A stretch of DNA of 64,000 nt, taken from NCBI GenBank assembly GCA_963662615.2, contig CAXXSR010000001.1, forward strand, positions 1,664,001 to 1,728,000. Reading direction: 5' to 3'. The translations under genes were made by a program, and so were the position numbers. Positions 801 to 22,682 of the stretch are shown here, piece after piece. The stretch comes from Dehalococcoidia bacterium (GTDB lineage Bacteria; Chloroflexota; Dehalococcoidia; Bin125). The number at the start of each line of letters is the position of its first letter. The first letter of the stretch is position 1. The notes beneath the pieces are model-generated. The model made no database searches and was not told where the DNA came from. It saw only the letters and a list, made by a program, of their open reading frames with translations.

Positions 801-1088
801 ACGTTAGCGATCGAACTCATCGGCGAGGTTGCCGATGAGATCCGCAGGCGCTTCCAGGACACCTCAGGACAGGGCGCGACGACCGAGTTACACCGCCAAG
901 GTGATCCTCGCCAGCGTGCGCGCAGCACCAGCTCCTCCTCAGCGAGGAAGCGCGATCTCTATCCGGAAGGGGATCCCATCTGTACTCACCACTGGACGAA
1001 CATCGGGATGTGTGTTCAATCCGGGCGAAAGAATGGTTGGTGTCCCCTTCGCGATCAGCCTGAGCGCTGGGCTCCAAGAACAGCCTCG

Positions 1089-1469
1089 CAGCCGGGTTAC
1101 CCGGAGCGGTCACCGAACGGAGGGCTGTTCGGGGGCTTGATCGAGGCGAACGCCCTGGTCGAGCGCACGTGGGGTGCCGCGATCCATGAGGCCGTCGCGC
1201 CTGAAGATGGCGAACTCGTCGTCACGAAGCGGGCGAATGCCATCCTGCCAGGACTCATGAACACACTCATGGCGATCGAGAACCGCGTCGCGAAAGGTGT
1301 CGACCGCGATGAGCTCATCGCTCAGCGTGATAGCCAAGTGCCGCTCGGTCGGAAGATGGGCACCGGCTGGGACGTGGCCAACGCGGTCCTCTTCCTCCAC
1401 TCCGATGACGCCGCCTTCATCACCGGTATCGCGCTCCCCGTCGACGGTGGCTCCGCTCTGACTCGCTAG
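1089..1469 (+). pseudogene. Chimeric remnant: isochorismatase/cysteine-hydrolase fragment fused in frame to the C-terminal half of an SDR oxidoreductase
   Basis: QPGYPERSPNGGLFGGLIEANALVERTWGAAIHEAVAPEDGELVVTKR (cysteine-hydrolase-like) is joined at ~1230 to RANAILPG...VPLGRKMGTGWDVANAVLFLHSDDAAFITGIALPVDGG (SDR C-terminus). No NAD-binding N-terminus is present. Confidence 0.65.
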
Positions 1470-1725
1470 AGCGTCGATCACCGGTCTGGATCGCCGTCGC
1501 GGCGGGCACTGACGTGGGCTCTGCGGGAGATCCGAGCGAATCGGTTCAGCCCGGCTTGGAGAGTCAGCGGTATCTGCGCGGAATGCGTAACGGGGCGGGC
1601 GGCGAGACGATGAAATTCGGATGCGGCCCTTATGTGCGCGCGCCGCTGGATGAGGTGACAATCGACCCTTCGACGTGGTTTGCTGATTGTGAGGTCGCAG
1701 AGCAGTACACGCGACCAGCGAGAGG

Positions 1726-8000: not shown

Positions 8001-8972
8001 AAACCTACGCGCTGGCCGGTCTCGGCAGGTTCTGAACTACTTGTGAATCCGCACAACAGAGAGGTTCTCCGCCCGTACCTCACGGGGGACGCCTTGAATT
8101 CCTTGCCGGATTCGATACCGTGCGAGATTGTCATCGATTTTGGGAATCGCGACGAGGAGGCCGCGAGGGAGTGGCCTGAGCTCATAGCGCTGGCAGAGGA
8201 GCGAGTAAAACCGGGCCGGGAGAAGTACAAAGGGGCGATGCGGGAGAAGTGGTGGCTCCACGCGCGCAGTAAAGCGAGTTTCTACACGAGCGTTCGCCCA
8301 CTTGAGCGCGTGATCGTCACTAGCCAAACAAGCCCTCGCTGGTCATTCACGCTAGTAGATTCAGCTTGGACCTATGACCAGACGGTTACGGTGATCTTGT
8401 CCGATTCACATGCCATGTTCGCCATCCTCAGCTCTCGATTGCACGAGGCCTGGGCTCGTTTCGTCGGGTCGTCGATGAAGGACGATCTTCGCTACACGCC
8501 GTCCGACTGTTTCGAGACCTTCCCCTTTCCCGAGGACTGGGAGACTCATGCGGCGCTGGAGGAGGTGGGCAAGGCCTACTACGCGTTCCGCGCGGATTCG
8601 ATGGTCAAAAACAACGAGGGCTTGACCAGGACATACAACCGCTTCCATCACCCAGACGAGCGCGACCCTGCCATCCAGGGATTGCGCGAGCTCCACGCGA
8701 CCATCGACCGTGTCATGCTCGACGCCTACGGCTGGAACGACATCCCAACCGATTGCGAGTTCCTCCTCGACTACGAGATCGACGAGGAGGAGTGGGGCCG
8801 CAAGAAGAAGCCTTACCGCTACCGCTGGCCCGATGACGTCCATGATGAAGTGCTGGCTCGGCTGCTTGAGCTAAACGCAGCTCGTGCGAAAGAGGAAGTG
8901 TGGGCCGGAGTCACGACCGAAAAGCCGAAGAGCCGCCGGAAGAAGGCCGCTAAGCAAAGGGAGCTCATCTAG
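5037..8972 (+). CDS. drmMI: DISARM N6-adenine DNA methyltransferase DrmMI (large, type IIG-like architecture)
   Basis: Motif I CDPAMGSGAF and motif IV GNPPF; C-terminal target-recognition region; start overlaps the drmD stop. Confidence 0.88.
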   Translation: MATLDPQIAAHLEWIGFVRPTGLVVSAPALVRAGAILDRNDAEGQRFLRENVEQREFDPAEGSTAWAPSFHAFASTVLGWNFSPTGYAGSEESPIPADLEVPLPDYGTTLRPDFVVRELDAAAGDVPWQLLVRVLEAGQDFDTTIRGDGNLEASAHGRMERLLRRTGVPAGLLFNGRALRLVSAPRGESSGWIDFCVDDMVQTAGRPICTALRLLLGQTRLLSLPRAQRLTALLEDSRKFQNEVSERLAEQVLHGLYDLLRGFQAAHDASGGELLREPLRENPDEVYRALLTVTLRLVFLLYAEERDMLPGDEAFQKYYSLAGLHARLREDAALFPDTMEQRYGAWPQLLVLFRMVFDGAESGEMRLPQRHGVLFDPDRFPFLEGRPAADSRQIDGRIEPPLVPDGTIYRVLENLLVLDGERISYRALDVEQIGSVYETMMGFRLEQATGRSVAIKASKRHGAPTTINLETLLAESPAAREKWVKDQADRALTDKVNKAVKDAVTLDDLHAALDSVVDRRATPDLIPVGAMALQPSEERRRSGSHYTPRTLTEPIIRTTLEPILKRLRGEEDRPPMPAQILELKVCDPAMGSGAFLVEACRHLGDALIEAWRFHDQLPSIPPDEDEVVLARRLIAQRCLYGVDKNPVAVDLAKMSLWLVTLARDHPLTFLDHALRHGDSLVGLSRKQIEAFHWDGDAPRFQAGLEIMQVREHVARVTNLRRRIREADESVQDWQLRDLWNEAQMELGNIRLFGDLVLAAFFEEEKPKERERKRNEYATSVLAGETEGNRERLDGWRDATLPLVPFHWEIEFPEVFERRAPGFDVFVGNPPFAGKNNLASANLAGYADWLRQSHEGSHGNADLVAHFFRRAFDLLREGGAFGLIATNTIGQGDTRSTGLRWICEHGGDLFAARKRLIWPGLAAVVVSVIHGTKGRFFEQRWLDDRPVEIITAFLADRGPHSDPSSLSANASLAFVGNYVLGDGFIFDDSKPTRWPVSAGSELLVNPHNREVLRPYLTGDALNSLPDSIPCEIVIDFGNRDEEAAREWPELIALAEERVKPGREKYKGAMREKWWLHARSKASFYTSVRPLERVIVTSQTSPRWSFTLVDSAWTYDQTVTVILSDSHAMFAILSSRLHEAWARFVGSSMKDDLRYTPSDCFETFPFPEDWETHAALEEVGKAYYAFRADSMVKNNEGLTRTYNRFHHPDERDPAIQGLRELHATIDRVMLDAYGWNDIPTDCEFLLDYEIDEEEWGRKKKPYRYRWPDDVHDEVLARLLELNAARAKEEVWAGVTTEKPKSRRKKAAKQRELI

Positions 8973-11900
8973 ATGGCCAAGACCGGAACGGACGACGCCC
9001 CCGCGACGACCTCCTTCGAAGTGCGAGCCAGCCTGGTCCAGGCGTTGCACCTTGACCTGGTTGGGCCGGGCTCGGATCACGAACTCGCTGAGGAGCGGCT
9101 ACCTGGTTGGGTGCGACCATCGAATTGGTATTTAACCGGTTTTCTGATCCCGTCGGGCACGCCACCTGAACAGGCCGCCGACACAGACGAGGGTGAAGAT
9201 CTGGACGAAACGCCGGAATCCGCCGGCCTCGCCGAAGAGAGCTCGGAGGACCGCAAGGCCGCCAAGCGAGGTTTCTTCCCGTCCTCCATGGGCTTGAGCT
9301 TCCTTGTGCCGGCCGGTGCGCAGACCCTTCAAGTCCTCGTGAGTTGGGGTGACTACACGGCGGAGGAAATCGAAGGCGAGGACCGGAAGTCGTCGTCCGT
9401 CTGGCAGCGGCACCCGCGGGAGCAGACGGTTGATGCCTCCCTTGGCGCTGGCGGGGGAGCGCCATGGGTCGTCCCCCTGCCAGACTCTGGCGGTCTCGAG
9501 CTAAACATCGTCGAGCGGGCGGTGTCGGTCGTGGACCTCGAGGGGCAGATCCCTGCGGGTACTCGGTCCATCTCCCTCTTCCTCGTGAACCACCGACCGC
9601 CGCTCGAGGCCAGGCTCGACGAGGCCTTCGTCTTCCAGCCGCAGCTCGACGTGCGGTGCGAGGTTCCCTTCGTGCCCCGGCCTGACCTTCGCGGCGCCTC
9701 CCCCGAGGATTGGGACGAGCAAGTGGCTGACCTGCACTACGCAGATGTGCCGGCATACGCCACAGGCCACAGTGTTTCGGCGGAGTGGGAAACGGCGGAC
9801 GGCGCGTGCCGCCTCCTGCGCACCGCCTGGATCCCCAGCGCCGAAGTCGAGAAGACCAGCACTGTCGAGCTTCCCGGCGTCGAACTGTCAATGAACGTCC
9901 TCGGAGTCTTGGAGGGTGGCCCTGCCGTTGAAAAGGCCTTGGCCCCATTGGTCGAACGCTACCGGACCTGGATCGAGGAACGGCGAGACGAGACCGCACA
10001 ACTCGCCGGGACCCGCCGTGACACGGCTGATCAGCTTCTCAGCTCCGCTTCATTCGCGGCCGACCGCATTGAGCGTGGGATCGCCGTCCTTGCCGAGGAC
10101 CCCGACGTCCTCGACGCGTTTCGGGTCGCGAACCGGGCCGTGGCCCGCGCCCTGCAGAAGCGCCTCGACGTCGAATCGCCGCAGTGGCGAGCCTTCCAAC
10201 TCGCTTTCGTCCTGCTCAACCTGCCCGGCATGGCCGACCCAAGCGACCCCAATCGCGACACAGTAGACCTGCTCTTCTTCCCGACCGGCGGGGGCAAGAC
10301 GGAGGCGTACTTTGGGCTCGCCGCCTTCGCGATGGTGCTGCGGCGGCTGCGTCATCGGGGGTCTCCCGCGGGCGTTGGGGTCAGCGTCATCATGCGCTAC
10401 ACCCTCCGGCTCCTCACACTGGACCAACTCAGCCGCGCGGCCGGACTCGTCTGTGCTTTGGAACTGGAGCGCGACCAGGATCCCATCTCTTACGGCGAGT
10501 GGCCCTTCGAGATCGGATTGTGGGTGGGTAAGGCTGCGACGCCAAACGTGCTTGGCCACAAAGGCGACGGACGGTCAGACTCCGCGCGCAGCAAGGTGCG
10601 CCAGTTCAAGAGCGATCCACGCAACAGGCCTTCACCAATCCCGCTCGAAAACTGCCCCTGGTGCGGGGAGTCTTTCAAGCCCGAGTCGTTTGAGCTTCGG
10701 CCAGACGACGACCGACCCCGTGAGCTACGGATCGTCTGCATGAACTTCGAGTGTGACTTCACCCGGGATCGCGCGCTGCCGATCGTGGCCGTCGACGAGC
10801 CCATCTATCGACGCTTGCCTGCCTTCCTGATCGCGACCGTCGACAAGTTCGCCTCGCTGCCTTGGGTTGGGCAGGCCGGCGCGCTCCTTGGCGGCGCGGA
10901 TCATCACGATTCAACGGGGTTCTATGGCGCCGCGGACCCGGGCAGCGGTACCCGCCTCGACACGCCCCTCCCCCCGCCCGACCTCATCATCCAGGATGAA
11001 CTCCACCTGATTTCTGGCCCGCTCGGCACCATGGCGGGGTTGTACGAGACGGCCATCGAGGCCCTCTGCGTGCGCCAGCTCGAGGGGCGCGCCGTCCGGC
11101 CCAAGATTGTCGCCTCGACCGCGACGGTGCGCCGTGCCCCCGATCAAATCCAGGCACTCTTCGGGCGGGCGTCCACCCAAGTCTTCCCACCTCCCGGGCC
11201 GGGACGCCGGCACTCGTTTTTTGCCAAGACGCTCTCGCCGACGGAGGTCCCTGCCAGGCTGTATCTCGGAGTTGCTGCGCAGGGTCGTAACCCAAAGGAG
11301 GTCCTCCGGAAGACGTGGCTCGCGCTGATGGGTGCCGCGCAGCGGGCCTACCGCGACGCGGGCGGCCACCAGAATGAAGCAAATCCTGCCGACCCCTATA
11401 TGACGGTCCTGGGGTACTTCAACAGCCTGCGCGAGTTGGGCGGCTGCCGCCGCATCCTCGAGGAGCAGGTCCAGAACACGATCAAGGCATACGGCGGCCG
11501 CAAGCGGGTCGGCGAGGATCGCGGGCTCTTCCGTGACCGGAAGACCTTCTCTGAGGTGGTCGAACTGACCTCCCGCGTCCCGACCAACAAGGTGGCGGAG
11601 GCGCGGCGCCGCTTGGAGGCCCGCTTCCACGAGAAGCAGCGTGTGGACTGTGCGATCGCGACGAACATGATCTCGGTCGGGCTTGATATTCAGCGGCTGG
11701 GACTGATGGTGGTGCAGGGCCAGCCCAAGACCACGTCCGAGTACATTCAGGCGACGAGTCGCGTGGGCCGAGACGAGGAGCGCCCTGGGCTCGTCGTCAC
11801 GCTGCTCAACATTCACAAGCCGCGGGATCGATCCCACTACGAGCGCTTCCGCCACTACCACGAGACCTTTTACCGCTCGGTCGAGGTGAGCAGCGTCACA

Positions 11901-12371
11901 CCGTTCTCTGCCCGCGCACTGGATCGCGGCTTCGCTGGTGCATGCGTTGCACTGGCGCGGTACGCCGAGCCGGCGCTGGCACCGCCGCGCGGTGCCGAGC
12001 AGATCGCGGCGGTCCGAGTTTCCCTAGAGATGCAGCTCCTCGACGCATTCCTTGAGCGGGTCCGGCAGCAGCCGATCGAGGACGCAGACGAGCTGGAGGA
12101 ACGCTTACGCAGTGTGCGAAACCGGACCGTGGATCTGCTCGACTCCTGGCGGGCGGTCTTCGACGAGTACCTCGCTGACGGAGTGGCGCTGCAGTACCAG
12201 AAGTACGAGCTGGACGGTCCTCGGCCACTCCTGCGCGACATCCTCGACCGAGATTTCGAGTCGGAACACCACCGAAAATTCCGTGCTAACCGGTCGCTTC
12301 GCGACGTGGAGCCGGAGGTCAACTTGTTTCTCCATGACCTCAACGGCAGGCAGGTGGACGCCGGGCCATGA
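8973..12371 (+). CDS. drmA: DISARM SF2 helicase DrmA
   Basis: PTGGGKTEAY, IQDELH, ASTAT and QATSRVGR motifs plus a CPWC zinc motif; immediately upstream of a DUF1998 gene. Confidence 0.92.
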   Translation: MAKTGTDDAPATTSFEVRASLVQALHLDLVGPGSDHELAEERLPGWVRPSNWYLTGFLIPSGTPPEQAADTDEGEDLDETPESAGLAEESSEDRKAAKRGFFPSSMGLSFLVPAGAQTLQVLVSWGDYTAEEIEGEDRKSSSVWQRHPREQTVDASLGAGGGAPWVVPLPDSGGLELNIVERAVSVVDLEGQIPAGTRSISLFLVNHRPPLEARLDEAFVFQPQLDVRCEVPFVPRPDLRGASPEDWDEQVADLHYADVPAYATGHSVSAEWETADGACRLLRTAWIPSAEVEKTSTVELPGVELSMNVLGVLEGGPAVEKALAPLVERYRTWIEERRDETAQLAGTRRDTADQLLSSASFAADRIERGIAVLAEDPDVLDAFRVANRAVARALQKRLDVESPQWRAFQLAFVLLNLPGMADPSDPNRDTVDLLFFPTGGGKTEAYFGLAAFAMVLRRLRHRGSPAGVGVSVIMRYTLRLLTLDQLSRAAGLVCALELERDQDPISYGEWPFEIGLWVGKAATPNVLGHKGDGRSDSARSKVRQFKSDPRNRPSPIPLENCPWCGESFKPESFELRPDDDRPRELRIVCMNFECDFTRDRALPIVAVDEPIYRRLPAFLIATVDKFASLPWVGQAGALLGGADHHDSTGFYGAADPGSGTRLDTPLPPPDLIIQDELHLISGPLGTMAGLYETAIEALCVRQLEGRAVRPKIVASTATVRRAPDQIQALFGRASTQVFPPPGPGRRHSFFAKTLSPTEVPARLYLGVAAQGRNPKEVLRKTWLALMGAAQRAYRDAGGHQNEANPADPYMTVLGYFNSLRELGGCRRILEEQVQNTIKAYGGRKRVGEDRGLFRDRKTFSEVVELTSRVPTNKVAEARRRLEARFHEKQRVDCAIATNMISVGLDIQRLGLMVVQGQPKTTSEYIQATSRVGRDEERPGLVVTLLNIHKPRDRSHYERFRHYHETFYRSVEVSSVTPFSARALDRGFAGACVALARYAEPALAPPRGAEQIAAVRVSLEMQLLDAFLERVRQQPIEDADELEERLRSVRNRTVDLLDSWRAVFDEYLADGVALQYQKYELDGPRPLLRDILDRDFESEHHRKFRANRSLRDVEPEVNLFLHDLNGRQVDAGP

Positions 12372-14161
12372 GCAAGCGCGCACACGGCCAGATTCGACGG
12401 AGCCAAGTCATCACCACGTGGGGCCCCGGTGCGCTCCTGGATCTCCCCCGCCACTCGGCGATCGTCGGGGGCTTGGACACCTGGCCCCGAATCAACGACC
12501 TCGAGGAGATCGTGGAGCCATTCCTGTCGCGAAAACTTCAAGAGATGACGGGCGTTGCTGCCCCGCGCTTATACGCTCCACCGGCGGACTCGAACGACCC
12601 CCGGGAGCCGAAGCAGGGCATCACGGTCTACCGCTTTCCGGAGTGGTTCATCGTCCAAGAGGCCGCGGGCGAAGACGGACGCCAGCGCTCCCGACGCCTC
12701 GTGTCCCGGCGCGCCCTCGATGAGCGGGGAAAGTTCGACGGGCACCTGGTCGTCGCGACCCGGTTCGTGCGGGGGTGCCCGCGAGGACACGTGGACGATC
12801 TCGATTGGCCTACGTTCGTCCATGGCCCCGGGGACGGCTGTCATCGCCAGCTCTGGCTGGACGAGCGGGGGACCAGCGGAGACCTGGGCGAGAACGTCGT
12901 GCGCTGTGAATGCAAACGGACGCGCGGGATGCACGAAGCGATGCTTCTCGAGGACAATCCGCTGGGTACGTGTCGCGGCACGCGCCCCTGGCTCGGACTG
13001 CATTCCAAGGAGGACTGTACGCTGCCCAGCCGCCTTCTCACCCGGACAGCCGCCAACGCCTACTTCCCGCAAGTGGTCAGTGTGCTCTCGCTCCCAGACC
13101 AGGGATCGGCCGTCCAGGGGGTAGTGCGAGCACTCTGGGACGATCTGCAGATCGTAGACACCGTCGACCAGCTCGCGTTTCTCAAGAAAAAGCCTCAAAT
13201 CGCAGATCTGCTCTCGCCGTTCAGCAACGACGAGGTCTTCGAGGCGATCGGCGTGGTCAAAGGTGGGCACGACGACGAGCGACCCGTTAAACACGTGGAG
13301 ATCGAAGCGATACTCGCCGCTCCCGAGGGCTTCGGGGACGACGTCCCGGTCGACCCGAACTTCCATGCACGGCGCCTGCCAGACGCAGCCTGGCGCCAGT
13401 TCTCTCGGAGCGACGGAATCGAGAGCGTCACCCAGCTCCATCGATTGCGAGAGGTCCTCGCCCTCAGCGGCTTCACCCGGTTCGAGGCGGAAGTACCCGA
13501 CATTCACGGCGAGTACGACAGCGATGTGCAGCGTGCGGAGCTTGCCCTGGAGCCCCAGTGGTTCCCCGCCGTCGAGAATCGCGGCGAGGGACTCTTCGTC
13601 CAGCTTCGTGCCACGGCCCTGCAGAGCTGGCTTGAGCAGCCGGGTGTCCAGGACCGACTCGATCACCTCACGACCGGCCATGACAGATGGATCAAGGACC
13701 GCAAGAGTAAGAGACAGTTCCCCGGCGGGCCGTACATTCTCCTGCACACGCTGTCGCATCTTCTGATGGAGTCGCTCTCGATGCGCTGCGGCTATCCAGC
13801 GAGCTCGATCCGCGAGCGGATCTATGCGGATGCAGCGGGGCAACGCTTCGGCGTCTTGCTCTACACGGGTAGCCCAGACGCAGAAGGCACACTCGGAGGG
13901 CTCGTCCAAGAAGCGCGTCATTTTGAGGCCCATCTTGCCTACGCGCTGCGGATGGGGGCGCTGTGCTCCAACGATCCGATTTGCGCAGAACACGCCCCTG
14001 GAGAAAGTTTGGAAGAACGCTGGCTCCACGGTGCCGCCTGCCACGGCTGTGCGCTGGTCGCGGAGACGTCATGCGAGATGCGCAACGACCATCTCGATCG
14101 CGCACTCCTCGTCCCCGTCCTGGGAGTCTCGGATGCGGCGTTCTTCGAGACCGTGGAATGA
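12368..14161 (+). CDS. drmB: DISARM DUF1998 protein DrmB
   Basis: N-terminal IRRSQVITTWGPG; LLHTLSHLLM; C-terminal CSNDPIC...ACHGC...ETSCE cysteine cluster; ATGA overlap with drmA. Confidence 0.92.
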   Translation: MSKRAHGQIRRSQVITTWGPGALLDLPRHSAIVGGLDTWPRINDLEEIVEPFLSRKLQEMTGVAAPRLYAPPADSNDPREPKQGITVYRFPEWFIVQEAAGEDGRQRSRRLVSRRALDERGKFDGHLVVATRFVRGCPRGHVDDLDWPTFVHGPGDGCHRQLWLDERGTSGDLGENVVRCECKRTRGMHEAMLLEDNPLGTCRGTRPWLGLHSKEDCTLPSRLLTRTAANAYFPQVVSVLSLPDQGSAVQGVVRALWDDLQIVDTVDQLAFLKKKPQIADLLSPFSNDEVFEAIGVVKGGHDDERPVKHVEIEAILAAPEGFGDDVPVDPNFHARRLPDAAWRQFSRSDGIESVTQLHRLREVLALSGFTRFEAEVPDIHGEYDSDVQRAELALEPQWFPAVENRGEGLFVQLRATALQSWLEQPGVQDRLDHLTTGHDRWIKDRKSKRQFPGGPYILLHTLSHLLMESLSMRCGYPASSIRERIYADAAGQRFGVLLYTGSPDAEGTLGGLVQEARHFEAHLAYALRMGALCSNDPICAEHAPGESLEERWLHGAACHGCALVAETSCEMRNDHLDRALLVPVLGVSDAAFFETVE

Positions 14162-14940
14162 CCGCGGCCCTCTTCGGTCTCCCGGCGCATCGGCGGAGGC
14201 GGCTTGTGGAAGCCCTTCAGTCGGGTCAGCTCTCTACGCCTTATTCCCCCACTTCGCTGCGATCAGTCCTCGGGCTGCGCGAGGGGGGCGAGGCCGTGCT
14301 CGATGCCCTGGGGGAGTTGGAAGGGATGAGCATCACTGGACGGGCCGCGGCGGCCTGGATTCGCGCCGTTGATGAGGCAGTCGATCGGCTGCCGCGGCCG
14401 GATCTCGTCTGGTCAGGCCCGGAGGTACTCGGGCTGCACGCCCGCGACACGCGGCGCGTGTACGAGGAGCTTCTGGGTGCGGCGGAGGACTCGATCTGGG
14501 CGTGCAGTTACGCCTACTTCGATGGTCGGCGCGCCTTCGAGGCGCTGGCGCGCCGGATGGACGAGAAGCCCGAGTTACGTGTGACGCTACTGCTCAACAT
14601 TCAGCGCCGACGCGGGGACACGACGACGGCGGAGCAGCTGGTGCGGAAATTCGCGGATCGCTTCTGGGGCACGGATTGGCCCGGCTCGTCCCGGCCGAGG
14701 GTCTTCTACGACCCGCGCTCGCTTGAGCCCGATGGTCCCGCTGGGGTCTTGCACGCGAAGGCCGTGGTAGCGGACGACAGGGCGGTCTTCGTGACATCCG
14801 CCAACCTCACCGAAGCGGCGCTCGACAGAAACATTGAGATCGGTCTGCTGGTTCGCGATCCGGCGATCGCCGCTACCGTCTCGACGCACTTCCGCACACT
14901 GGTCGAACAACGCTTGCTGCTCCAGTTGCCTGGGGACTAA
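14158..14940 (+). CDS. drmC: DISARM phospholipase D-family nuclease DrmC
   Basis: Single HKD motif LHAKAVVAD followed by TSANLT and NIEIG; ATG at 14158 overlaps the drmB stop (ATGA). Confidence 0.9.
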   Translation: MTAALFGLPAHRRRRLVEALQSGQLSTPYSPTSLRSVLGLREGGEAVLDALGELEGMSITGRAAAAWIRAVDEAVDRLPRPDLVWSGPEVLGLHARDTRRVYEELLGAAEDSIWACSYAYFDGRRAFEALARRMDEKPELRVTLLLNIQRRRGDTTTAEQLVRKFADRFWGTDWPGSSRPRVFYDPRSLEPDGPAGVLHAKAVVADDRAVFVTSANLTEAALDRNIEIGLLVRDPAIAATVSTHFRTLVEQRLLLQLPGD

Positions 14941-15011
14941 GACCAGTCGTCTGGGAGCGCTCCTCTAGCGGCCCGGAGTTCAACGACGCGCTCGGCCACG
15001 CCTCGTCGATG

Positions 15012-15962
15012 TGACCTGCCCCCCCAGAACCGGTCCAGATCCTGTGCGAGGATTCGGGCCGGTGCGAAGGGAGTCGGCATGGCACGCAAGCGGTACGCGG
15101 CCGAGGAGATCATCAGCAAACTGCGGGAGGCGGAGGTGGTGCTCGCGCAGGGGGAATCGGTCGCGCCGGTCGCGCGCCGCCTCGGCGTGGCCGAGCCAAC
15201 GTATTACCGCTGGCGGCGGGAGTACGGGGGGCTGCGGGTCGACCAGGCCAAGCGGCTGAAAGAACTGGAGCGCGAGAACAGTCGGCTGAAGCGGTTGGTG
15301 GCCGATCAGGCGCTGGACAACGCGATGTTGCGGGGCGTCGCAGCGGGAACCTGCTGAGCCCGGCCAAGCGGCGCCGGGCGACATCCTCCCGCACGGACCC
15401 GTACGCGGTGTCGGAGCGGCGGGCCTGCCGGGTCACCGGCCAGGCGCGGGCACCGCAGCGCTACGTGCCCCGGCCGTCCCCGGATGAGCCGGCGCTGATC
15501 GCGCGCATCGTCGCGCTGGCCACCCGCTTCGGCCGCTACGGCTCCCGCCGCATCACGGCCCGGCTGCGCCAGGCGGGCTGGCGGGTGAACCCCAAGCGGG
15601 TCGAGCGGCTCTGGCGTCAGGAAGGCTTGCGGGTCCCCGGGAAGCACCCCAAACGGGGCCGCCTCTGGCTCGCGGCCGGCTCGCTGGTGCGGCGGCGGGC
15701 CGAGCGGCCGAACCACGTCTGGTCCTACGACTTCGTCTTCGACCGCACCGCCGCTGGGCGCCCGGTGCGGATCCTCGCCATCGTGGATGAGTACACCCGC
15801 GAGTGCCTGCGTCTCGACGTCGCCCGCCGACTGCGCAGCGACGACGTCCTGGCGCGGTTGGCCCAGCTGTTCGTCGAGCGCGGGCCGCCGACGTTTCTGC
15901 GGTCCGACAACGGCCCGGAGTTCACCGCCACCGCGGTGCGGGACTGGCTGCACCGGGTCGGG
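15012..15962 (+). mobile_element. Truncated IS3-family (IS407-like) insertion sequence
   Basis: Left end TGACCTGCCCCC at 15012, then orfA and overlapping orfB. orfB similarity stops after SDNGPEFTATAVRDWLHRVG, so the third DDE residue and right IR are missing. Confidence 0.85.
15079..15357 (+). CDS. IS3-family transposase OrfA (HTH)
   Basis: MARKRYAAEEIISKLREAE...TYYRWRREYGG...KRLKELERENSRLKRLVADQALDN is typical of IS3 OrfA. Confidence 0.9.
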   Translation: MARKRYAAEEIISKLREAEVVLAQGESVAPVARRLGVAEPTYYRWRREYGGLRVDQAKRLKELERENSRLKRLVADQALDNAMLRGVAAGTC

Positions 15963-17255
15963 CTCCCGCCCGAGACTGGCGCGCAGTCGCGCCGGAGGCG
16001 GGAACGGACTAAGGGAAGATCGGCACTCCACGACCCTATACCAGATGGGAAGATCGGCACTCAGCTTGAGCTTTCTCTGGATGGGTTGGACGTGTCGCCG
16101 GTCTCGAAGGAGAAGCGCAAGCGCGCGGCTAAGAGACCAGCCCGACACGACGAGCTGTTCGATCTCTACCAGCGTCGGATCGCCGGCCGCGTCGCACCCG
16201 CGACAGTGACGAAGTACGCCTGGACGCTCGAACAGTGTCTTCGTCTGGCCGAGGAGCGAACCTCCCGGCCGGTGAGCATAGCGATGCTGTTGACTGACGG
16301 AACGGCGCTGGGATACGTCTGTTCCACGACTCGACGCCCTGGTGGCGGACTCCCCATCTCGGCATGGACCGCCGCGCATAGAAGGACGGTCTTGCGGTCC
16401 GTGGCCGGGACTCTCGCACCGGAACTCAGGTCTTTGGGCCTGAACGACGCGATCCAACACGTCGATCTCGCGATCCGGCGAGTGGCCGAGAGGGTGGGCG
16501 GTGGATCTCGCTTGCCGGTCGGAACGACGCGGAACAGAGGCCGGCCCGTGCCGTCGACGGCGGAAGTGAGCTCGCTACTGAACGTCGTAGGAAGCGACGA
16601 AGGCTGGGCTGGTCAGCGAAATGCGCTGTTCTACGGAATCCTCGCCGCGACGGGCACGCGCGTCGGCGCACTTCTTGTACTGGATGGCCAAGACTTGTGT
16701 CTGACTCCGGACGGTGCCGTCCGGCTTTCTCTCCACGACAAAGCCTCCGGTGGGCGGTTCGAGCTGGAACTTCCGGATCGCTTCCACGCACCGCTAGATG
16801 CCTACTTCGAGGCTACCAATCTGTCGCTCACCGGTCTGGGAAAAGGGCGAGTCGGGTTCGGGAGATTAGGCCCTGTTTGGCGCGGTCCAACGGGCGATCG
16901 ATGGCCAGCCGCCCAGATGCGCCGCCGCTTGCGAGCGGCCTGCCGCACGGCTGGGATAGAGGACTACACGCCGCATTCGTTCAGAGCCTACTTCGCCACG
17001 CAAGCGACCAACGTCGCGTCGCGCCGAGTCGCGGCCCTTGCCGGAGGCTGGCGGGGGACCGAGCGAATGGATGACCACTACGTCGGAGTCAAGCGCGATT
17101 CCATCGAGCGGAAGCTCGCCCAGATCGGCGTATCCGACAGAAGCCAACGCGGCTCCCGTCGTCGCCCGGCGGTTGAACAGCCTCATATGTCGCCCGCCGC
17201 AACTACACCGACGGCGGGTGCAGATCTCATTGCGAAGATCCGGTCGCGCCAATGA
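15408..17255 (+). CDS. In-frame fusion: truncated IS3 OrfB (to ~15962) plus a tyrosine recombinase (~15963-17255) with a complete catalytic set
   Basis: N-terminal part has WSYDFV and RSDNG (two DDE aspartates). C-terminal part has TGTR (R), HDK (K), PHSFR (HxxR), GGW (H/W) and DDHY (Y). Confidence 0.8.
   Translation: MSERRACRVTGQARAPQRYVPRPSPDEPALIARIVALATRFGRYGSRRITARLRQAGWRVNPKRVERLWRQEGLRVPGKHPKRGRLWLAAGSLVRRRAERPNHVWSYDFVFDRTAAGRPVRILAIVDEYTRECLRLDVARRLRSDDVLARLAQLFVERGPPTFLRSDNGPEFTATAVRDWLHRVGLPPETGAQSRRRRERTKGRSALHDPIPDGKIGTQLELSLDGLDVSPVSKEKRKRAAKRPARHDELFDLYQRRIAGRVAPATVTKYAWTLEQCLRLAEERTSRPVSIAMLLTDGTALGYVCSTTRRPGGGLPISAWTAAHRRTVLRSVAGTLAPELRSLGLNDAIQHVDLAIRRVAERVGGGSRLPVGTTRNRGRPVPSTAEVSSLLNVVGSDEGWAGQRNALFYGILAATGTRVGALLVLDGQDLCLTPDGAVRLSLHDKASGGRFELELPDRFHAPLDAYFEATNLSLTGLGKGRVGFGRLGPVWRGPTGDRWPAAQMRRRLRAACRTAGIEDYTPHSFRAYFATQATNVASRRVAALAGGWRGTERMDDHYVGVKRDSIERKLAQIGVSDRSQRGSRRRPAVEQPHMSPAATTPTAGADLIAKIRSRQ
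16013..16062. repeat. Perfect 16-bp direct repeat GGGAAGATCGGCACTC, two copies, 34-bp period
   Basis: Copies at 16013-16028 and 16047-16062. Confidence 0.9.
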
Positions 17256-18277
17256 CAGCGCTCCAACCCGATCTGTTGAAGTCCAAGCGTGCGTCGCTCG
17301 ACGAAGACTCCGAACGGTTGCTGACGACCTACACGCAGGCACGGCTCGACGAGGGAGCAGCCGCATCGACCGTGTCGTCTGAGCGCTCCCAGCTCAGGAG
17401 CCTGCTACGGGACTCGATCGAATCCGGCAAGGCCAGGACCCTCGCTGAGCTGGTGATGGACCCGTCGAGCGCCGCATCCGCGCTGACCTGCCCCACAGGT
17501 TCACCGGGCAGGGCGTCGATGCAGACGAGACTTCGCGCCTTCCAGCGGCTCTCGGGGCTCGGAGTTTCCGACGCGGAACGCAGGGCACGCCTCGAAGTCT
17601 TGGATGGGTCCCTCCCTTCCCGGCGCAGCCGAGGGTGGCACGACGCCGGTATCGCCGTCGCTGGACTACGGGGAACAGGACGGTGTAGAACTTCGACGAT
17701 CGATCCATCAGCGCTGGAGGCGATCGTTCTCGGGAGCGGTGTCCGAGCGAACGACGATTCCGCCCTTCTGGGCGCGCTCTGCTTCAGCGGCCTGCGCGTC
17801 GCGGAGGTTCGCATGCTGCGCTGGGGAGATCTGATCTGGAACGGCGCGGCAGAATCCTGGGAAGCTTCGGTCCAGCGTACCGGGAGACGTGGCCTGCGGT
17901 TTCTCATCGTTGGACCCGGTGCCCAAACCATGACGAATTGGAGACTTGAATCGCGCGCCGACGACGACCAAGCTGTCTTCGGCGCGCGGGACTCCGGGAA
18001 ACCCCTATCGGCGCGTGGCTTCCGACGGCGCGTGGACTTCGCTCTAACTCAGGCTGGGCATCCCTCGACCCGGCATTCCCAGATTCAGTCGGCGTTCGCG
18101 GGCTGGCTCTCCGCGTCCGGCTTCACGGACCACGAGATCAAAGTGGTGATGGGGCGCCGGGAGGTCAGATCGGTTGACCGGCTCCTGTTCGCTCACCGGG
18201 CGTTGGCGGCGCAGCGGCAGCTTGCCGAGCAAATGGAGGGTGCGCCCCTTGGCTCGGGCTCGATCGGGAGCCATTGA
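17252..18277 (+). CDS. Tyrosine-recombinase-fold protein, catalytically degenerate
   Basis: Box I FSGLRVAEVRMLRWGD is kept, but the HxxR position reads SQIQ, LGH reads MGR and the Tyr position reads VDRL. ATGA overlap with the upstream recombinase. Confidence 0.75.
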   Translation: MTALQPDLLKSKRASLDEDSERLLTTYTQARLDEGAAASTVSSERSQLRSLLRDSIESGKARTLAELVMDPSSAASALTCPTGSPGRASMQTRLRAFQRLSGLGVSDAERRARLEVLDGSLPSRRSRGWHDAGIAVAGLRGTGRCRTSTIDPSALEAIVLGSGVRANDDSALLGALCFSGLRVAEVRMLRWGDLIWNGAAESWEASVQRTGRRGLRFLIVGPGAQTMTNWRLESRADDDQAVFGARDSGKPLSARGFRRRVDFALTQAGHPSTRHSQIQSAFAGWLSASGFTDHEIKVVMGRREVRSVDRLLFAHRALAAQRQLAEQMEGAPLGSGSIGSH

Positions 18278-18291
18278 AGTGCTCTGGGTAC

Positions 18292-18320
18292 TTGAGGCTA
18301 GAGATAAAGACGGTGATAAT
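18292..18320 (+). promoter_or_regulatory. Candidate sigma70 promoter for the small-ORF/serine-recombinase pair
   Basis: TTGAGG-17 bp-GATAAT followed by a purine-rich RBS (GAGGAAGGGG) before ATG 18342. Confidence 0.35.
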
Positions 18321-18341
18321 AATGAGGAAGGGGGTGCTGCG

Positions 18342-18578
18342 ATGGATGTGACGCTCAATGGGAAGCGCTACTCGATGACGAAAGCGGATGTGGAGCGGGT
18401 CGTCGACGAGGCTCCGGACTCGCCGCGACGATACGTCGTGAAAGTCAAACGAAAGCGCTACCCGATCAAACAGGCCGCAAGTGCGGGCCTCGGTGTGCCG
18501 CCCGTCGCGTTCACTTCCCAGCAGGCGTACCAATGGCTCTCGCGACTCGACTTCGACGTGATCGATCTGAAGGGCTGA
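18342..18578 (+). CDS. Small basic protein, SCO5918-like; possible DNA-binding protein or recombination directionality factor
   Basis: 78 aa, MDVTLNGKRYSMTK...RYPIKQA...FTSQQAYQWLSRLDF; good RBS; 5 bp upstream of the serine recombinase. Family assigned from remembered motifs only. Confidence 0.6.
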   Translation: MDVTLNGKRYSMTKADVERVVDEAPDSPRRYVVKVKRKRYPIKQAASAGLGVPPVAFTSQQAYQWLSRLDFDVIDLKG

Positions 18579-18583
18579 CGACC

Positions 18584-20137
18584 ATGCGAGCACTCGTCTA
18601 CTGCCGCGTGTCGACCGATGCCCAAGAGCGAGATGGCACTTCCCTCGATACTCAGGAGCGGGCGGCCGTCAAGGTTGCGCGCGAGTCCGGCTATTCGGTG
18701 ACCGAAACGGTCCGCGACACCGCGAGCGGATTCACGCTCGAACGGCCGGGAATCGAACACGTCCGGCGTCTGCTCAGGGCCGGCGCCGTCGACATCGTGC
18801 TGGCCTACGCCGTCGACCGATTGTCCCGCAACCAGAACCACATCGGTGTCCTCTTCGACGAGGTCGCTCAAGCTGGGGCTCAACTGGAGTTCGTGACGGA
18901 GGACTTCGAGGACACGGCGATCGGCCGCTTCATCTTGGCGGCGCGCGCGTTCACGGCGGAGGTCGAGCGCGAGAAGATCGCCGAGAGAACGATGCGCGGC
19001 AAGGCGGAGCGCGCGCGGCGAGGGAAGCTCCCTCAGGGTACGGGCAAGGGGATGTACGGATACGCGTACGACCCGGATACCGGAACTCGACAGATTGTCG
19101 AGGCGCAAGCAGCGGTCGTTCGACGGATCTTCGAGGCGTTCGTCGCGGGTCGAGCGTGCAACGGGATCTCGAACGATCTGAACGGCGACGGTGTTCCTGC
19201 GTTCAGCGGCGGGCGCTGGTACGCGCTGACGATCCGTCGACTGCTCAAGAATGAAGCGTTCGCGGGACGAACGATCTACCGGCGGACCCGCGCAGATCGG
19301 GTGCGGGATGTGGCGCGCGGTCGCTGGACGCGGCGCATCGTGGAGCGGGACCAGTCAGAGTGGATTGAGGTCGCGGGAGCGACGCCGGTGATCATCGACC
19401 GAGGCCTGTTCGACGCGGCACAGAAGATTCTCGACGATCCATCTCGCCGCCCACAGACGGCTCCGTCAGACGTGTACCTGCTCCGGGGCCGGATCTCTTG
19501 CCGGGAGTGCGGTGCGAAGATGGTCGGCCATGCTTCGAATCGAGGGCGCTATCGCTACTACCGCTGCCCGAACGGCTCAAGCGGTCCGGGAGAGACATCG
19601 TGCTGCTCAAGGTACATCCGCATCGAGCGCCTTGAGGGCGCGGTGAAGACGGCCTTGACCGATCTGCTTGCTTCACCGGACCGGCTTCTTGGTGAGGCGA
19701 AGCGTCTCGCCAGACGTCAGCCGCAAGACGAGGACCTTGAGAAAGTGTTCCAAGCCTTAGGCGAGGTGGAGTCCGCTCAGGGAAGACTGGTCCGACTGTA
19801 TACGACCGAGGCGCTTCCCGAGCACCTGCTGCGCGAAGAATCTCGGGTCCTGTCTGAGCGGCGTGAGGTGCTGGAGAACACGCGCCGAGAGCTGCAAGCT
19901 CAAACGGTGCCCACGCCCCGCGACTTCTCGCGGATCGCAGGCGACGTACCAGCGGCACTCTCGGCCATCCGCAGTTGGGTTAAGGACGCGAGCGGGGACG
20001 ACTTCGATCTCATGCTGCGGGCTGTCGATGCACAGGTCAGAGCCTCACACGAAGGGGTCGAGATCGCGGGCGCCGTGCCGATCTTCCCAGATGGGGATCA
20101 GGCGGATTTCGCTACCATTGAACAAACATCGGCATGA
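18584..20137 (+). CDS. Large serine recombinase (integrase)
   Basis: MRALVYCRVSTDAQ (catalytic Ser), DRLSR, recombinase domain, zinc ribbon CRECG...YYRC, coiled coil. Confidence 0.93.
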   Translation: MRALVYCRVSTDAQERDGTSLDTQERAAVKVARESGYSVTETVRDTASGFTLERPGIEHVRRLLRAGAVDIVLAYAVDRLSRNQNHIGVLFDEVAQAGAQLEFVTEDFEDTAIGRFILAARAFTAEVEREKIAERTMRGKAERARRGKLPQGTGKGMYGYAYDPDTGTRQIVEAQAAVVRRIFEAFVAGRACNGISNDLNGDGVPAFSGGRWYALTIRRLLKNEAFAGRTIYRRTRADRVRDVARGRWTRRIVERDQSEWIEVAGATPVIIDRGLFDAAQKILDDPSRRPQTAPSDVYLLRGRISCRECGAKMVGHASNRGRYRYYRCPNGSSGPGETSCCSRYIRIERLEGAVKTALTDLLASPDRLLGEAKRLARRQPQDEDLEKVFQALGEVESAQGRLVRLYTTEALPEHLLREESRVLSERREVLENTRRELQAQTVPTPRDFSRIAGDVPAALSAIRSWVKDASGDDFDLMLRAVDAQVRASHEGVEIAGAVPIFPDGDQADFATIEQTSA

Positions 20138-21242
20138 TGACGTGGATGTAGTTGTCACGGCCAAGAGGCCGGAAGACGCCCGGGTTGGACGGACCGGTTG
20201 ACTCCAGGGCGATCTGACCGCCTCCCAGCACTTGCAGCACGTCCTGAAGATAGCGGCTATTGAAGGCGACCTTGGCTTCCTCGCCTTCGACCGTCGCGTC
20301 CATCTCCCCTTGATGATCGCCCTGCTCTTCCGCGCGGGCCGAGATGGCGATCTTCCCCGGCTGCGTGTTGGCCGGCACGATCACCAGCCGCACGATGCCG
20401 CTGCCGTCCCGCGCGAAGACCGCCGCCGTGCGGACTTCGCGGAGGAATTCGGCCGTGTCAACCGTGGCGCGGGTTTGATAATCGGCGGGGATGAGCTGGT
20501 TGAAACTGGGGAACGTTCCCTGGATCAGCTGCGCCGTCAGTTCGAGATCAGTGAGCCGGAACAGGACCTGGCTGCGGGCGCCGTTCACGTGCAACTCTAC
20601 GGGCTCTTCTTGTTCAGCCAGGAGCCGGCTCAGCTCTTGCAACGCCCGCGCGGGCACGATGATCTCAATGGAAGCCTCCGGCGCCTCCGCGATGTCCAAG
20701 TGATAGACAGCGAGCCGGAAGCCGTCAGCGGCCGCGAGCGTGAGCCGCTCCTCATCAATGCGGAGATGAACGCCGGTCAGCACCGGCCGGCTGTCGTCCG
20801 TGGCGGCGGCGAAGACGACGTGCTCGATCGCTTCGCGGAGGGCATCAGGCTCGAGACGGATCGTGTCGCCTTCGGTGATGGTGGGGATGGGCGGAAAGTC
20901 GTCCGCGTCCATCCCGCTGATCGTCGCCTCGTTGCGCGCGCAGACGATCTGGGCCTGGCGCGAACGCGGGGCCACCGTCACGGTGATGTCCGCGGGAGGC
21001 AGCGAGGCGACGAATTCCGTCAGCAGCCGCGCCGGGATCGTGATCGCGCCCTCTTCTTCGACGGTTGCCGTCACCCAACCCGTGATGGCGATCTCCAGAT
21101 TCGTGGCCGCGAGCTTGAGGCGATCCCCTTCCGTGGCCAGGTAGATATGCGAGGTCTGGGGGAGGGTGCTGCGCGCCGCCACTGCCCGGCCGACTGTGGC
21201 GAGCCCGCGCTGCAAGACCTCTTGCCGCGTAGCGAGCTTCAC
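20112..21242 (-). CDS. dnaN: DNA polymerase III beta sliding clamp
   Basis: ATNLEI, DDSRPVLTGV, AADGFRLA and C-terminal VIMPMFVQW; 376 aa. Confidence 0.97.
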   Translation of the reverse strand: MKLATRQEVLQRGLATVGRAVAARSTLPQTSHIYLATEGDRLKLAATNLEIAITGWVTATVEEEGAITIPARLLTEFVASLPPADITVTVAPRSRQAQIVCARNEATISGMDADDFPPIPTITEGDTIRLEPDALREAIEHVVFAAATDDSRPVLTGVHLRIDEERLTLAAADGFRLAVYHLDIAEAPEASIEIIVPARALQELSRLLAEQEEPVELHVNGARSQVLFRLTDLELTAQLIQGTFPSFNQLIPADYQTRATVDTAEFLREVRTAAVFARDGSGIVRLVIVPANTQPGKIAISARAEEQGDHQGEMDATVEGEEAKVAFNSRYLQDVLQVLGGGQIALESTGPSNPGVFRPLGRDNYIHVIMPMFVQW

Positions 21243-21357
21243 GAGTTCCTCCGCAGAATTGTTTAGCCGGCTATGCTATTGACTGTTTCAGTCTAGTGAA
21301 AAACTGCCGCACTGGTGAGCGCGAATCAGGAAAAGATCGCCACTGGCGACAAAACGC

Positions 21358-21377
21358 GGTGGATAAGCTGTGGAAAA
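21358..21377 (-). promoter_or_regulatory. Two tandem DnaA boxes upstream of dnaN
   Basis: GGTGGATAA (21358-21366) and TGTGGAAAA (21369-21377), each one mismatch from TGTGGATAA and 2 bp apart. Confidence 0.65.
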
Positions 21378-21383
21378 ACGGAA

Positions 21384-22682
21384 TTACGGTCGCCGATGGA
21401 CCGTCGCCATCGCCCCGACAGCCGCCTCAAGCGTCGCGTCGATGACGGCGTCATCGTGCGCCAGCGAAACGAACATGGCCTCGAATTGCGAGGGGGCCAG
21501 GTTGACGCCGCCATTGAGCGCGCCGTGAAAGAAGCGGCTGTAGGCGTCGGTGTCGCTGGCGGCCGCTGCGGCGTAGTCCGTGGGGAGCTCCGCGCGGAAG
21601 AAGCCGGTCAGGATTGAGCCCGCGCGGCTCACGACGTAGTCCAGCTCCGCCTGTCGGGCGGCGTGGACGAGCCCGTCCCCCAGACGGCGAGCGCGCCGCT
21701 CAAGGTCGTCGTAGACGGCGGGATCGGTAAGCGCGTCGAGGGTGGCGATGCCGGCGGACATAGCCAGAGGGTTGCCGGATAATGTTCCGGCCTGATACAC
21801 CGGACCCGCCGGGGCAAGGGATTGCATGATCCCTGCTGGACCGCCCAGCGCGCCGACGGGAAGCCCGCCTCCGATGATCTTGCCCAAGCAAGTGAGATCC
21901 GGCTTGACGTCCAGTAGCGTCTGCGCGCCGCCCCGGTGCACGCGGAAGCCAGTGATGACCTCGTCAAAGATCAGCAGTGCGCCCGTCCCCGTGGCGATAT
22001 CCCGCAAGGCGGGCAGGAAGCCTTCAAGCGGGGAAATGACGCCCATGTTGGCGGCGATGGGCTCAACGATGATCGCCGCCAAGTCGTCGCTGTGGCGCTC
22101 GGCGATCGTCCGAGCCGCGTCCGCATCGTTGTAGGGCGCCACCAGCGTCTCGGCGGCGTACGTCGGGGGGACGCCTGCCGTATCGGGGAGCGCGAAGGTT
22201 GCGAGGCCGGACCCTGCCTTGACGAGCAGCCCATCGCTGTGCCCGTGATAGCAGCCGGCAAACTTCAGGACCTTCTGCCGCCCGGTATAGCCGCGCGCGA
22301 GCCGAATCGCCGTCATCGTCGCCTCCGTGCCGGAGTTGACGAAGCGCACCATCTCGATCGAGGGCAGGACGTCGACGACGCGTTGCGCCAGCGCCGTCTC
22401 CAGCTCCGTAGGAGCGCCGTAGGCCGTGCCGCGAGTCGCGGCCTCCTGCAATGCCGTGACGACTGCAGCGGGCGCGTGCCCGAGGATCAAGGGCCCGTAG
22501 GCGGAGACGTAGTCGATGTAGCGATTGCCATCGACGTCGAAGAGATAGGGGCCCTCCCCCCTGGCGATCACGAGGGGATCGCCGCCGACAGCCTTGAACG
22601 CACGGACGGGGCTATTGACCCCCCCGGGGAGGACGCCAAGGGCGTCGGCGAATGCCCTGGCTGACGCGGGGCCAGCGCTCAT
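21384..22682 (-). CDS. hemL: Glutamate-1-semialdehyde 2,1-aminomutase
   Basis: PGGVNSPVRAF, NSGTEATM, FDEVITGFR, LGKIIGGG and YQAGTLSGNP motifs. Confidence 0.97.
   Translation of the reverse strand: MSAGPASARAFADALGVLPGGVNSPVRAFKAVGGDPLVIARGEGPYLFDVDGNRYIDYVSAYGPLILGHAPAAVVTALQEAATRGTAYGAPTELETALAQRVVDVLPSIEMVRFVNSGTEATMTAIRLARGYTGRQKVLKFAGCYHGHSDGLLVKAGSGLATFALPDTAGVPPTYAAETLVAPYNDADAARTIAERHSDDLAAIIVEPIAANMGVISPLEGFLPALRDIATGTGALLIFDEVITGFRVHRGGAQTLLDVKPDLTCLGKIIGGGLPVGALGGPAGIMQSLAPAGPVYQAGTLSGNPLAMSAGIATLDALTDPAVYDDLERRARRLGDGLVHAARQAELDYVVSRAGSILTGFFRAELPTDYAAAAASDTDAYSRFFHGALNGGVNLAPSQFEAMFVSLAHDDAVIDATLEAAVGAMATVHRRP

Follow-up and report, generated by a model that had tools for sequence, protein, structure and literature searches.

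The closest described system to the locus reported here is the group of ssrA-specific islands of Dehalococcoides, which carry the serine recombinase DsiB. According to the part of that report available to us, these islands stand in tandem, bounded by ssrA and by direct repeats of about 20 bp of its end (McMurdie et al. 2011, PMC3146451). DsiB has about 540 amino acids and belongs to the serine recombinase family. Its reading frame always overlaps the attachment (att) site, with the stop codon outside the island, and McMurdie et al. raise a possible functional relevance of this overlap (PMC3146451). We studied a comparable arrangement in a Dehalococcoidia bacterium. The stretch analysed, hereafter the window, comprises 64,000 nucleotides (nt) of contig CAXXSR010000001.1 (C1; positions 1,664,001 to 1,728,000). 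In the window, the gene for a large serine recombinase (LSR), named LSR#1, ends inside the antisense strand of dnaN, which encodes the beta sliding clamp. We conclude, with a probability of roughly 85%, that positions 20104 to 20160 are the right attachment site (attR) of a 19.1-kb island. This island, E1 (approximately 1007 to 20130), would have been inserted by its LSR into the last codons of the essential dnaN gene.

Two other systems share parts of this arrangement. In SCCmec, a serine recombinase island (CcrAB) enters the 3' end of rlmH (orfX), as outlined in the portion of PMC3146451 at hand. In mycobacteriophage BPs, integration-dependent immunity involves a phage attachment site (attP) inside the repressor open reading frame (ORF) and a tyrosine integrase; the excerpts consulted describe a product that differs by integration state, with a functional difference demonstrated (PMC4557955, PMC3694055). 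Like SCCmec, E1 inserts at the 3' end of a protein-coding gene that is conserved and single copy, and leaves it intact. The target gene, host phylum and cargo differ, and SCCmec uses two Ccr recombinases. To our knowledge, no integrase/att overlap has been described for SCCmec. As in the available account of BPs, attP lies inside an ORF, but here that ORF is the serine integrase itself and its two forms are predicted from sequence. The large serine integrases of phages and integrative and conjugative elements (ICEs), such as phiC31, Bxb1, A118, TP901-1 and SPbeta SprA, share the domain architecture of LSR#1. Their attP, like the one rebuilt here, has two inverted arms flanking a 2-bp core. In the studied serine integrases, attP and the bacterial site (attB) have little in common past the core, and attP does not fall in the integrase frame. 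At the dnaN locus, attP and attB are near identical over about 21 bp, because both encode the same peptide, and attP is within the integrase gene. No report of dnaN as a serine-recombinase target was found in the literature searched; catalogues of predicted LSR att sites, outside that search, may list such sites. Durrant et al. reportedly compiled a large catalogue of this kind in 2023. A literature search for attP within an LSR gene gave only general papers.

The features of the junction, and of the opposite end of E1, are listed below in window coordinates unless marked C1.

18533 to 20137, + strand: LSR#1, large serine recombinase (Pfam Resolvase, Recombinase and Zn_ribbon_recom)
20112 to 21242, - strand: dnaN, beta sliding clamp (all three beta-clamp domains, Pfam)
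20104 to 20130, no strand: putative P arm of attR, inside the LSR 3' end (symmetry, co-variation)
20131 to 20132, no strand: probable crossover dinucleotide GG (recurring dyad centre, co-variation)
20133 to 20160, no strand: putative B' arm, made of host dnaN codons and holding the LSR Ala534 codon and TGA at 20135 to 20137 (sequence, co-variation)
20115 (C1:1684115): dnaN tail copy in use (genome-wide motif search)
989 (C1:1664989; 986 to 1006 with its stop): middle tail copy (genome-wide motif search)
C1:1642074, 42 kb left of dnaN and outside the window: leftmost tail copy (genome-wide motif search)
986 to 1006, - strand: displaced dnaN tail, comprising the stop complement and the W, Q, V, F, M and P codons, and forming the putative left half of the E1 left attachment site, attL (genome-wide pattern search, 1 mismatch)
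1007 to 1033, no strand: putative P' arm of E1, repeating part of the dnaN-tail mimic in inverted orientation (19 of 28 positions complementary to the arm left of 20131)

LSR#1 and dnaN meet tail to tail. The LSR#1 ORF encodes 534 amino acids ending in ATIEQTSA, with TGA at 20135 to 20137. The dnaN ORF encodes 376 amino acids ending in MPMFVQW, with its stop complement at 20112 to 20114. The two genes overlap by 26 nt (20112 to 20137), in agreement with the earlier note on this DNA. LSR#1 is predicted to be a large serine recombinase, with an N-terminal catalytic domain, a C-terminal recombinase domain and a zinc ribbon. Briefly, residues 20 to 165 match Resolvase (PF00239, 1.5e-30, profile positions 1 to 144 of 145), and Recombinase (PF07508, 1.9e-21) and Zn_ribbon_recom (PF13408, 5.5e-13) follow. 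The N-terminal stretch includes YCRVSTDAQ, and residues 18 to 164 match residues 1 to 137 of gamma-delta resolvase. More distant matches include the solved SPbeta YokA/SprA, TP901-1, a 500-residue integrase and phage integrases of up to 34% identity. Since homologue alignments start around residues 16 to 19, the true start may be Met18 at 18584. The dnaN gene is single copy (one match genome-wide). Among 19 dnaN loci with a complete gene end, including that of the window, 14 end exactly in MPMFVQW and five vary slightly or have one to three additional residues. By this comparison, the C-terminus of the clamp in the window is the native one.

A genome-wide search identified exactly three near-perfect copies of the dnaN tail motif, all in one orientation; every other hit had three mismatches. 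Hence, the second dnaN 3' end that the earlier note had suggested looking for at the left boundary of the island is present (986 to 1006), with a third copy 42 kb left of dnaN. All three copies encode P-M-F-V-Q-W-stop; the differences among them are confined to third-codon positions and the stop codon. The copy at 986 to 1006 encodes the same residues as the dnaN tail in use and ends at its central GG (1005 to 1006). Codon usage was considered as a marker of the native tail and dropped; the leftmost copy, presumably native, shares codons with the element copies. This leftmost copy is within the 3' end of a second LSR, LSR#2, on the - strand. LSR#2 is 49% identical to LSR#1, has one in-frame TAG where LSR#1 has Gln and is predicted to be inactivated. 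Because the third tail copy adjoins a second LSR, the 42 kb left of dnaN are assigned to two tandem islands, E2 (22.9 kb) and E1 (19.1 kb). LSR#2 is at the left end of E2, which starts 22 kb before the window.

The resemblance to the ssrA islands covers several points. In the part of the source available, those islands occur in the same bacterial class, occupy the 3' end of a single-copy essential gene and stand several in tandem within 100 kb (PMC3146451). Here too, the island is bounded by its target and a direct repeat, with three same-orientation copies in 42 kb. In addition, the integrase frame runs over the att site, through the 26-nt overlap, to a stop outside the island. The target is a tmRNA gene in that system but protein-coding dnaN here. 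Therefore, the repeat keeps codons on one strand while the integrase reads the other; integrases of the LSR#2 type read the coding strand too, in a different frame. LSR#1 is at the attR end, facing the target, whereas DsiB is described at attL. The cargo here is phage defence, whereas the accessible text reports reductive dehalogenases in the ssrA islands. The ssrA six-gene module (DsiB, DsiA, RecF-like, ParB-like, Mom-like and a large protein) has no equivalent here: by Pfam, no DsiA, RecF or ParB module was seen beside LSR#1 or LSR#2, where tyrosine recombinases are found instead. The likeness of LSR#1 to DsiB is one of descriptions rather than of compared sequences.

We surveyed 80 loci encoding homologues of LSR#1, mostly in metagenome-assembled genomes of Dehalococcoidia or Chloroflexota. 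These loci are akin, and the counts do not represent independent events. About half a dozen LSR types were distinguished by the sequence left of the motif. A convergent dnaN gene is present in 44 of the 80 loci, which bears out the adjacency that the earlier note had proposed to look for among related recombinases. The LSR frame runs into the dnaN end in every one of the 44, which is more than chance would give. Overlaps range from 20 to 1053 nt, with modes of 26 (11 loci), 40 (nine loci) and 78 nt (eight loci), representing three different reading frames. A stricter count considered LSR matches reaching the 3' end. By this count, nine more loci have the motif at the LSR end with no dnaN behind it, five have it in the sense orientation (like LSR#2) and five have neither. 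In 28 loci, 11 of which belong to the 44, the match ends early or the contig ends. The tail motif is inside the LSR frame in all LSR types. All five long genome records searched have two or three same-orientation tail copies, 16 to 131 kb apart, and a reversed-pattern control found none. Most inner copies in these records mark places where the LSR end of one element meets the far arm of the next one. A genome from the same family as the window (G012) retains only a C-terminal LSR remnant, which overlaps dnaN by the identical 26 nt. A single dnaN-tail motif is shared by two convergent LSR genes in L038 and L044 (and L047); one gene reads it antisense and the other sense. Either two element types abut at these loci or one element has an LSR at each end.

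We place the crossover at GG 20131 to 20132, the complement of the invariant CC in the last Pro codon of dnaN, because the symmetry centre is there and co-variation brackets the exchange. To assess symmetry, attP was rebuilt from the left arm of attR and the right arm of the middle copy. The rebuilt site has 19 of 28 complementary positions about 20131|20132. For comparison, 200,000 random genome 28-mers gave a mean of 6.6 (standard deviation 2.2) and a maximum of 17. This offset also scores best in L032 and L053 (18 of 28 in each) and ranks among the top four in most other junctions. Because the P' arm (1007 to 1033) is an inverted partial copy of the tail mimic, the middle copy would be the true left end of E1. 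In silico, the locus thus has an attP with inverted arms about a non-palindromic 2-bp core, and hybrid attL and attR sites. The earlier note had centred the site on the pair ACATC (20126 to 20130) and GATGT (20145 to 20149). This repeat exists but is at chance level; at least one 5-bp inverted repeat with a spacer of up to 30 nt occurred in 54% of 5000 shuffles of the 56 nt from 20100 to 20155. Its right arm, GATGT, is not conserved and falls in host codons that differ in most related loci. The centre found here falls between 20131 and 20132, 6 bp further left.

Co-variation was measured across 44 attR sites, using 33 pairs with the same LSR arm and different host arms and 27 pairs of the reverse kind. 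The stop complement (-3 to -1) and motif positions 4, 7 and 10 are identical in 85 to 100% of pairs sharing an LSR arm, but in only 37 to 70% of pairs sharing a host arm. Motif position 24 follows the host (1.00 for the same host arm versus 0.64 for the same LSR arm). These values would put the exchange between motif positions 10 and 24. The earlier note had offered two alternatives: that the element rebuilds the dnaN terminus or that the integrase borrows its stop from the host. Both appear to hold. The variable third-codon positions and the stop of dnaN follow LSR type rather than host, and the last LSR codon and stop are on the host side of the probable crossover.

The simplest interpretation is as follows. 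The attP of the element would sit in the 3' end of its own integrase gene. On the opposite strand, the P arm comprises the dnaN stop, the last five codons (M-F-V-Q-W) and the third base of the Pro codon, and would act as a synonymous dnaN tail. Recombination at the Pro-codon GG/CC (20131 to 20132) would swap the host tail for the element copy and leave the original tail at the far island end (986 to 1006). The host would retain all dnaN codons upstream of the crossover. Since the element tail is a synonymous copy of the host tail, the clamp protein would be unchanged; consistent with this, simulated excision of E1 yields an identical dnaN end. Because the integrase frame crosses the crossover, the LSR Ala534 codon and TGA would be host DNA whenever the element is integrated. 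The anatomy of the locus, the three tail copies and the geometry across the family are observations. From them we infer the exact crossover, the LSR rather than a neighbouring tyrosine recombinase as the agent of insertion, and possible mobility of E1 today.

The integrase end should differ between states. In the rebuilt attP, the LSR frame has no TGA and continues through 1006 to 1137 to a TGA at 1138 to 1140. The product would have 577 residues, compared with 534 when integrated. With attP inside the ORF, the product differs by state in silico. Other cognate-looking attP frames also have no stop; besides E1 of this genome (G000), these are L032, L053 and the P' arms of L112, L118 and L121, with run-ons of 28 to 45 codons. 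Where the host dnaN has another codon at this place, the integrated LSR loses its TGA and gains 42 to 52 residues (for example L034, L035, L046, L100 and L102). The integrase end is therefore predicted to depend on context. As separate observations, the dehydrogenase-like ORF at 1008 to 1469 starts inside the P' arm, and integrase read-through in the excised form would overlap it in another frame. The right arms of L112, L118, L121 and L032 share a short stretch about 45 nt past the core, with F-R-R in the integrase frame and a GGAGG-like run. This stretch could be a putative ribosome-binding or regulatory site of the first cargo gene, not coding sequence.

Could the overlap be a selected regulatory device, with a 534-residue integrated form and a 577-residue excised form differing in activity, stability or directionality? 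The LSR frame is open across the dnaN stop in all 44 dnaN-adjacent loci and in three different frames. Judged from overlap lengths, the LSR stop is past the probable crossover in 43 of them. Every cognate-looking attP that was rebuilt has no stop and continues for 28 to 45 codons. DsiB of the ssrA islands behaves in the same way, as far as the available text describes it (PMC3146451), as do distant Sphingomonas homologues whose frames end in a tRNA-Met gene. However, the run-on tails share little past the att-coded part, save a short F-R-R in one arm type. At about 65% G+C, some 40 codons are expected before a chance stop (an estimate from base composition). Moreover, the integrated form is not uniformly short, because other host codons give 42 to 52 extra residues. 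We therefore regard a selected device, an idea that the earlier note had also raised, as unlikely. In the Sphingomonas cases, the homologue frames end inside the antisense strand of the tRNA-Met gene (L109, 4532 to 4608; L110, 4595 to 4671); identity is 28 to 31% for the Sphingomonas homologues and 28 to 29% for these two. This suggests that the habit of reading across the target is widespread in this LSR branch. A more general proposal is that a clade of LSRs keeps its frame open across its own crossover (in dnaN here, ssrA in Dehalococcoides and tRNA-Met in Sphingomonas) and that the isoforms sense integration state. We put this forward only tentatively and with considerable doubt. If true, the host would supply the stop when integrated and the far end a 28 to 45-residue tail when excised, biasing the enzyme toward integration or excision. 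We take the host-supplied integrase end to be a passive result of a compact attP rather than a proven regulator.

A second possibility puts the crossover at the integrase stop or further right, as with the centre 20137/20138 of the earlier note. In that case the stop codon would belong to the element, and integration would leave the integrase unaltered. Position 22 (the G of TGA) tracks the LSR arm about as well as the host arm (0.73 versus 0.67), and a TGA is retained at this point in several junctions that have no dnaN (L037, L039, L040 and L049). However, these four have one right-arm type behind three LSR types, and a symmetry of 10 to 13 of 28. Owing to this shared right arm and low symmetry, they look like junctions between neighbouring elements rather than cognate attP sites. 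We rejected them as TGA-keeping attP sites, together with L066, L068 and L069, where one right-arm type likewise stands behind several LSR types and symmetry is again low; all seven are probably such junctions. All high-symmetry sites (18 to 19 of 28) have no TGA, and the same LSR type carries or lacks TGA according to the host codon (L055 versus L100). In addition, the central AT at 20137 to 20138 is palindromic, and a palindromic core would not fix orientation in serine integrases. A crossover at the stop is hence improbable. Least likely is that the tyrosine recombinases at 15408 to 17255 and 17252 to 18277 are the true integrases, with the repeats as their identity segment and the LSR as cargo or in another resolving role: direct repeats of 21 to 25 bp at a gene 3' end are typical of tyrosine integrases and such a recombinase is beside the LSR in both islands, but homologues occur in only five of 80 LSR loci (3 kb of upstream flank each) against 44 of 44 for the LSR/dnaN geometry, the tail motif is within the LSR frame in all LSR types, and the need to keep dnaN codons accounts for the repeat length.

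Several points weigh against insertion of E1 by LSR#1 at the dnaN tail. The crossover is placed by symmetry and co-variation, not by mapped cleavage, and the co-variation pairs come from related, non-independent loci. Motif positions 16 and 22 follow neither side clearly. The rebuilt attB has low symmetry (9 of 28). Two tyrosine recombinases stand just upstream of LSR#1, and a 21 to 25-bp direct repeat is their usual trace. LSR#2 has its in-frame TAG. E1 itself has gene fragments (the remnant of a dehydrogenase, and an IS3 part joined to a recombinase), and given these it may no longer be mobile. Finally, neither excision nor an empty site was directly seen, the contigs being fragmentary. Among the short Logan contigs for window positions 700 to 20650 (X15, X16, X19 and X1; the longest listed piece from a 3663-nt record), none joined 1006 to 20132. 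One X16 contig joined 7310 to 20127 and was treated as spurious, since its shorter side has only 25 letters. A 291-nt X15 contig begins at 20125; this fits variation inside the core but is no proof of it.

The remaining features of the window that bear on E1 and its flanks are listed below.

1 to 606, - strand: 5' part of a GmrSD-like gene, the last gene of E2 (Pfam GmrSD_N 2e-19)
1008 to 1469, + strand: ORF matching only the C-terminal third of a short-chain dehydrogenase (Pfam adh_short_C2, profile positions 167 to 234 of 236), probably a cargo remnant
1726 to 5037, + strand: DrmD, SNF2 helicase, DISARM (PADLOC DrmD E=0, 1020 bits)
5037 to 8972, + strand: DrmMI, N6-adenine methylase, DISARM (PADLOC DrmMI E=0, 1287 bits)
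8973 to 12371, + strand: DrmA helicase, DISARM (PADLOC DrmA 6.7e-276)
12368 to 14161, + strand: DrmB, DISARM (PADLOC DrmB 1.4e-78; Pfam MZB)
13963 to 14940, + strand: DrmC, PLD nuclease, DISARM (PADLOC DrmC 3.1e-79; Pfam PLDc_2)
15408 to 17255, + strand: part of an IS3-like transposase (HTH_21, rve) and a tyrosine recombinase in a single frame of 615 amino acids (Pfam)
17252 to 18277, + strand: second tyrosine recombinase, directly upstream of LSR#1 (Pfam Phage_integrase 1.9e-5, under the curated cut-off)
21384 to 22682, - strand: hemL-like aminotransferase, upstream of dnaN (Pfam Aminotran_3)

The cargo of E1 is, by profile matching, a complete class 1 DISARM system; all five genes are top PADLOC hits and are consecutive from 1726 to 14940. 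Between DISARM and LSR#1 are the two tyrosine recombinases. Homologues of the tyrosine-recombinase part of 15408 to 17255 are found upstream of the LSR in L034, L088, L090 and L106. The order of tyrosine recombinase A, tyrosine recombinase B and serine recombinase is kept in the same four loci. Hence, positions 15408 to 20137 may be a putative mixed recombinase module. The second tyrosine recombinase is 36% identical to the one beside LSR#2. Local G+C peaks at 0.74 in 15079 to 17255. In four metagenome runs, contig depth over 14686 to 16017 is tens of times above that of the bins just after, as expected for a multicopy insertion sequence.

E2 has genes for LSR#2, a tyrosine recombinase, QatC and a UvrD-like helicase, as well as the GmrSD-like gene, IS3 copies and a type III methylase accompanied by a ResIII helicase. 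The full GmrSD-like ORF (C1:1662741 to 1664606) matches GmrSD_N at 1.4e-28 (Pfam). Between a small ORF and this gene, 1.5 kb left of the window, a lone 30-residue fragment (G000, C1:1662486 to 1662575) is 73% identical to LSR#1 residues 447 to 476. It probably derives from yet another element, now decayed, within E2. By Pfam, no genes for type IV secretion or a coupling protein were found in E1 or among the E2 genes scanned. A 16-kb island at the dnaN site in G031 has a Phd/YefM antitoxin, AbiEii, Z1, DUF4420, Vsr and IS1595 copies. The 44-kb dnaN island of G035, of which about 40 kb were examined, has DruA, a ResIII helicase, a methylase and a primase, together with TrbL/VirB6, TraC/VirB4-like and coupling-protein-like genes. 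The dnaN site thus appears to admit ICE-like elements as well as small, non-conjugative islands, and defence genes recur among the cargo.

To the right, hemL adjoins dnaN in 12 relatives, while the DNA downstream of dnaN differs in each. Because this synteny is conserved, the right side is assigned to the chromosome backbone. The dnaN gene is not beside dnaA here and has the hemL-like gene as its upstream neighbour (20112 to 22682). Within 1.5 kb of dnaN, the loci of 19 relatives had none of the genes that flank the island on its left, among them those for two MR/MLE enzymes. No tRNA or tmRNA gene was found in the window. A different kind of insertion was observed in L020 (G026; same class, other family; 2560 to 3240). 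There, an insert of about 530 nt within the dnaN tail has a small Phd-like ORF and a RelE/ParE-like ORF, both assigned by inspection of their translations. Behind the insert, roughly the last 26 dnaN codons are repeated. This duplication far exceeds those at the LSR islands, and the locus showed no recombinase.

Our analysis adds dnaN to the short list of essential single-copy landing genes for serine-recombinase islands. It also points to a way of sparing a protein-coding target: one attP arm supplies synonymous last codons and the other arm mirrors them. The target, about 40 bp, falls entirely in codons that the class conserves. Because partner binding by the beta clamp requires its final residues, the host cannot easily mutate the site away. 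Since E2 is in tandem with E1, the dnaN tail would be a hot spot for defence cargo. The tandem insertions here hold DISARM, type III restriction-modification, GmrSD-like and QatC genes, and relatives add Druantia DruA and AbiEii. For Dehalococcoidia, which have few genetic tools, this integrase and its defined natural site offer a candidate integration vector. The locus also provides a second, protein-coding test case for the question of McMurdie et al. on state-dependent integrase ends.

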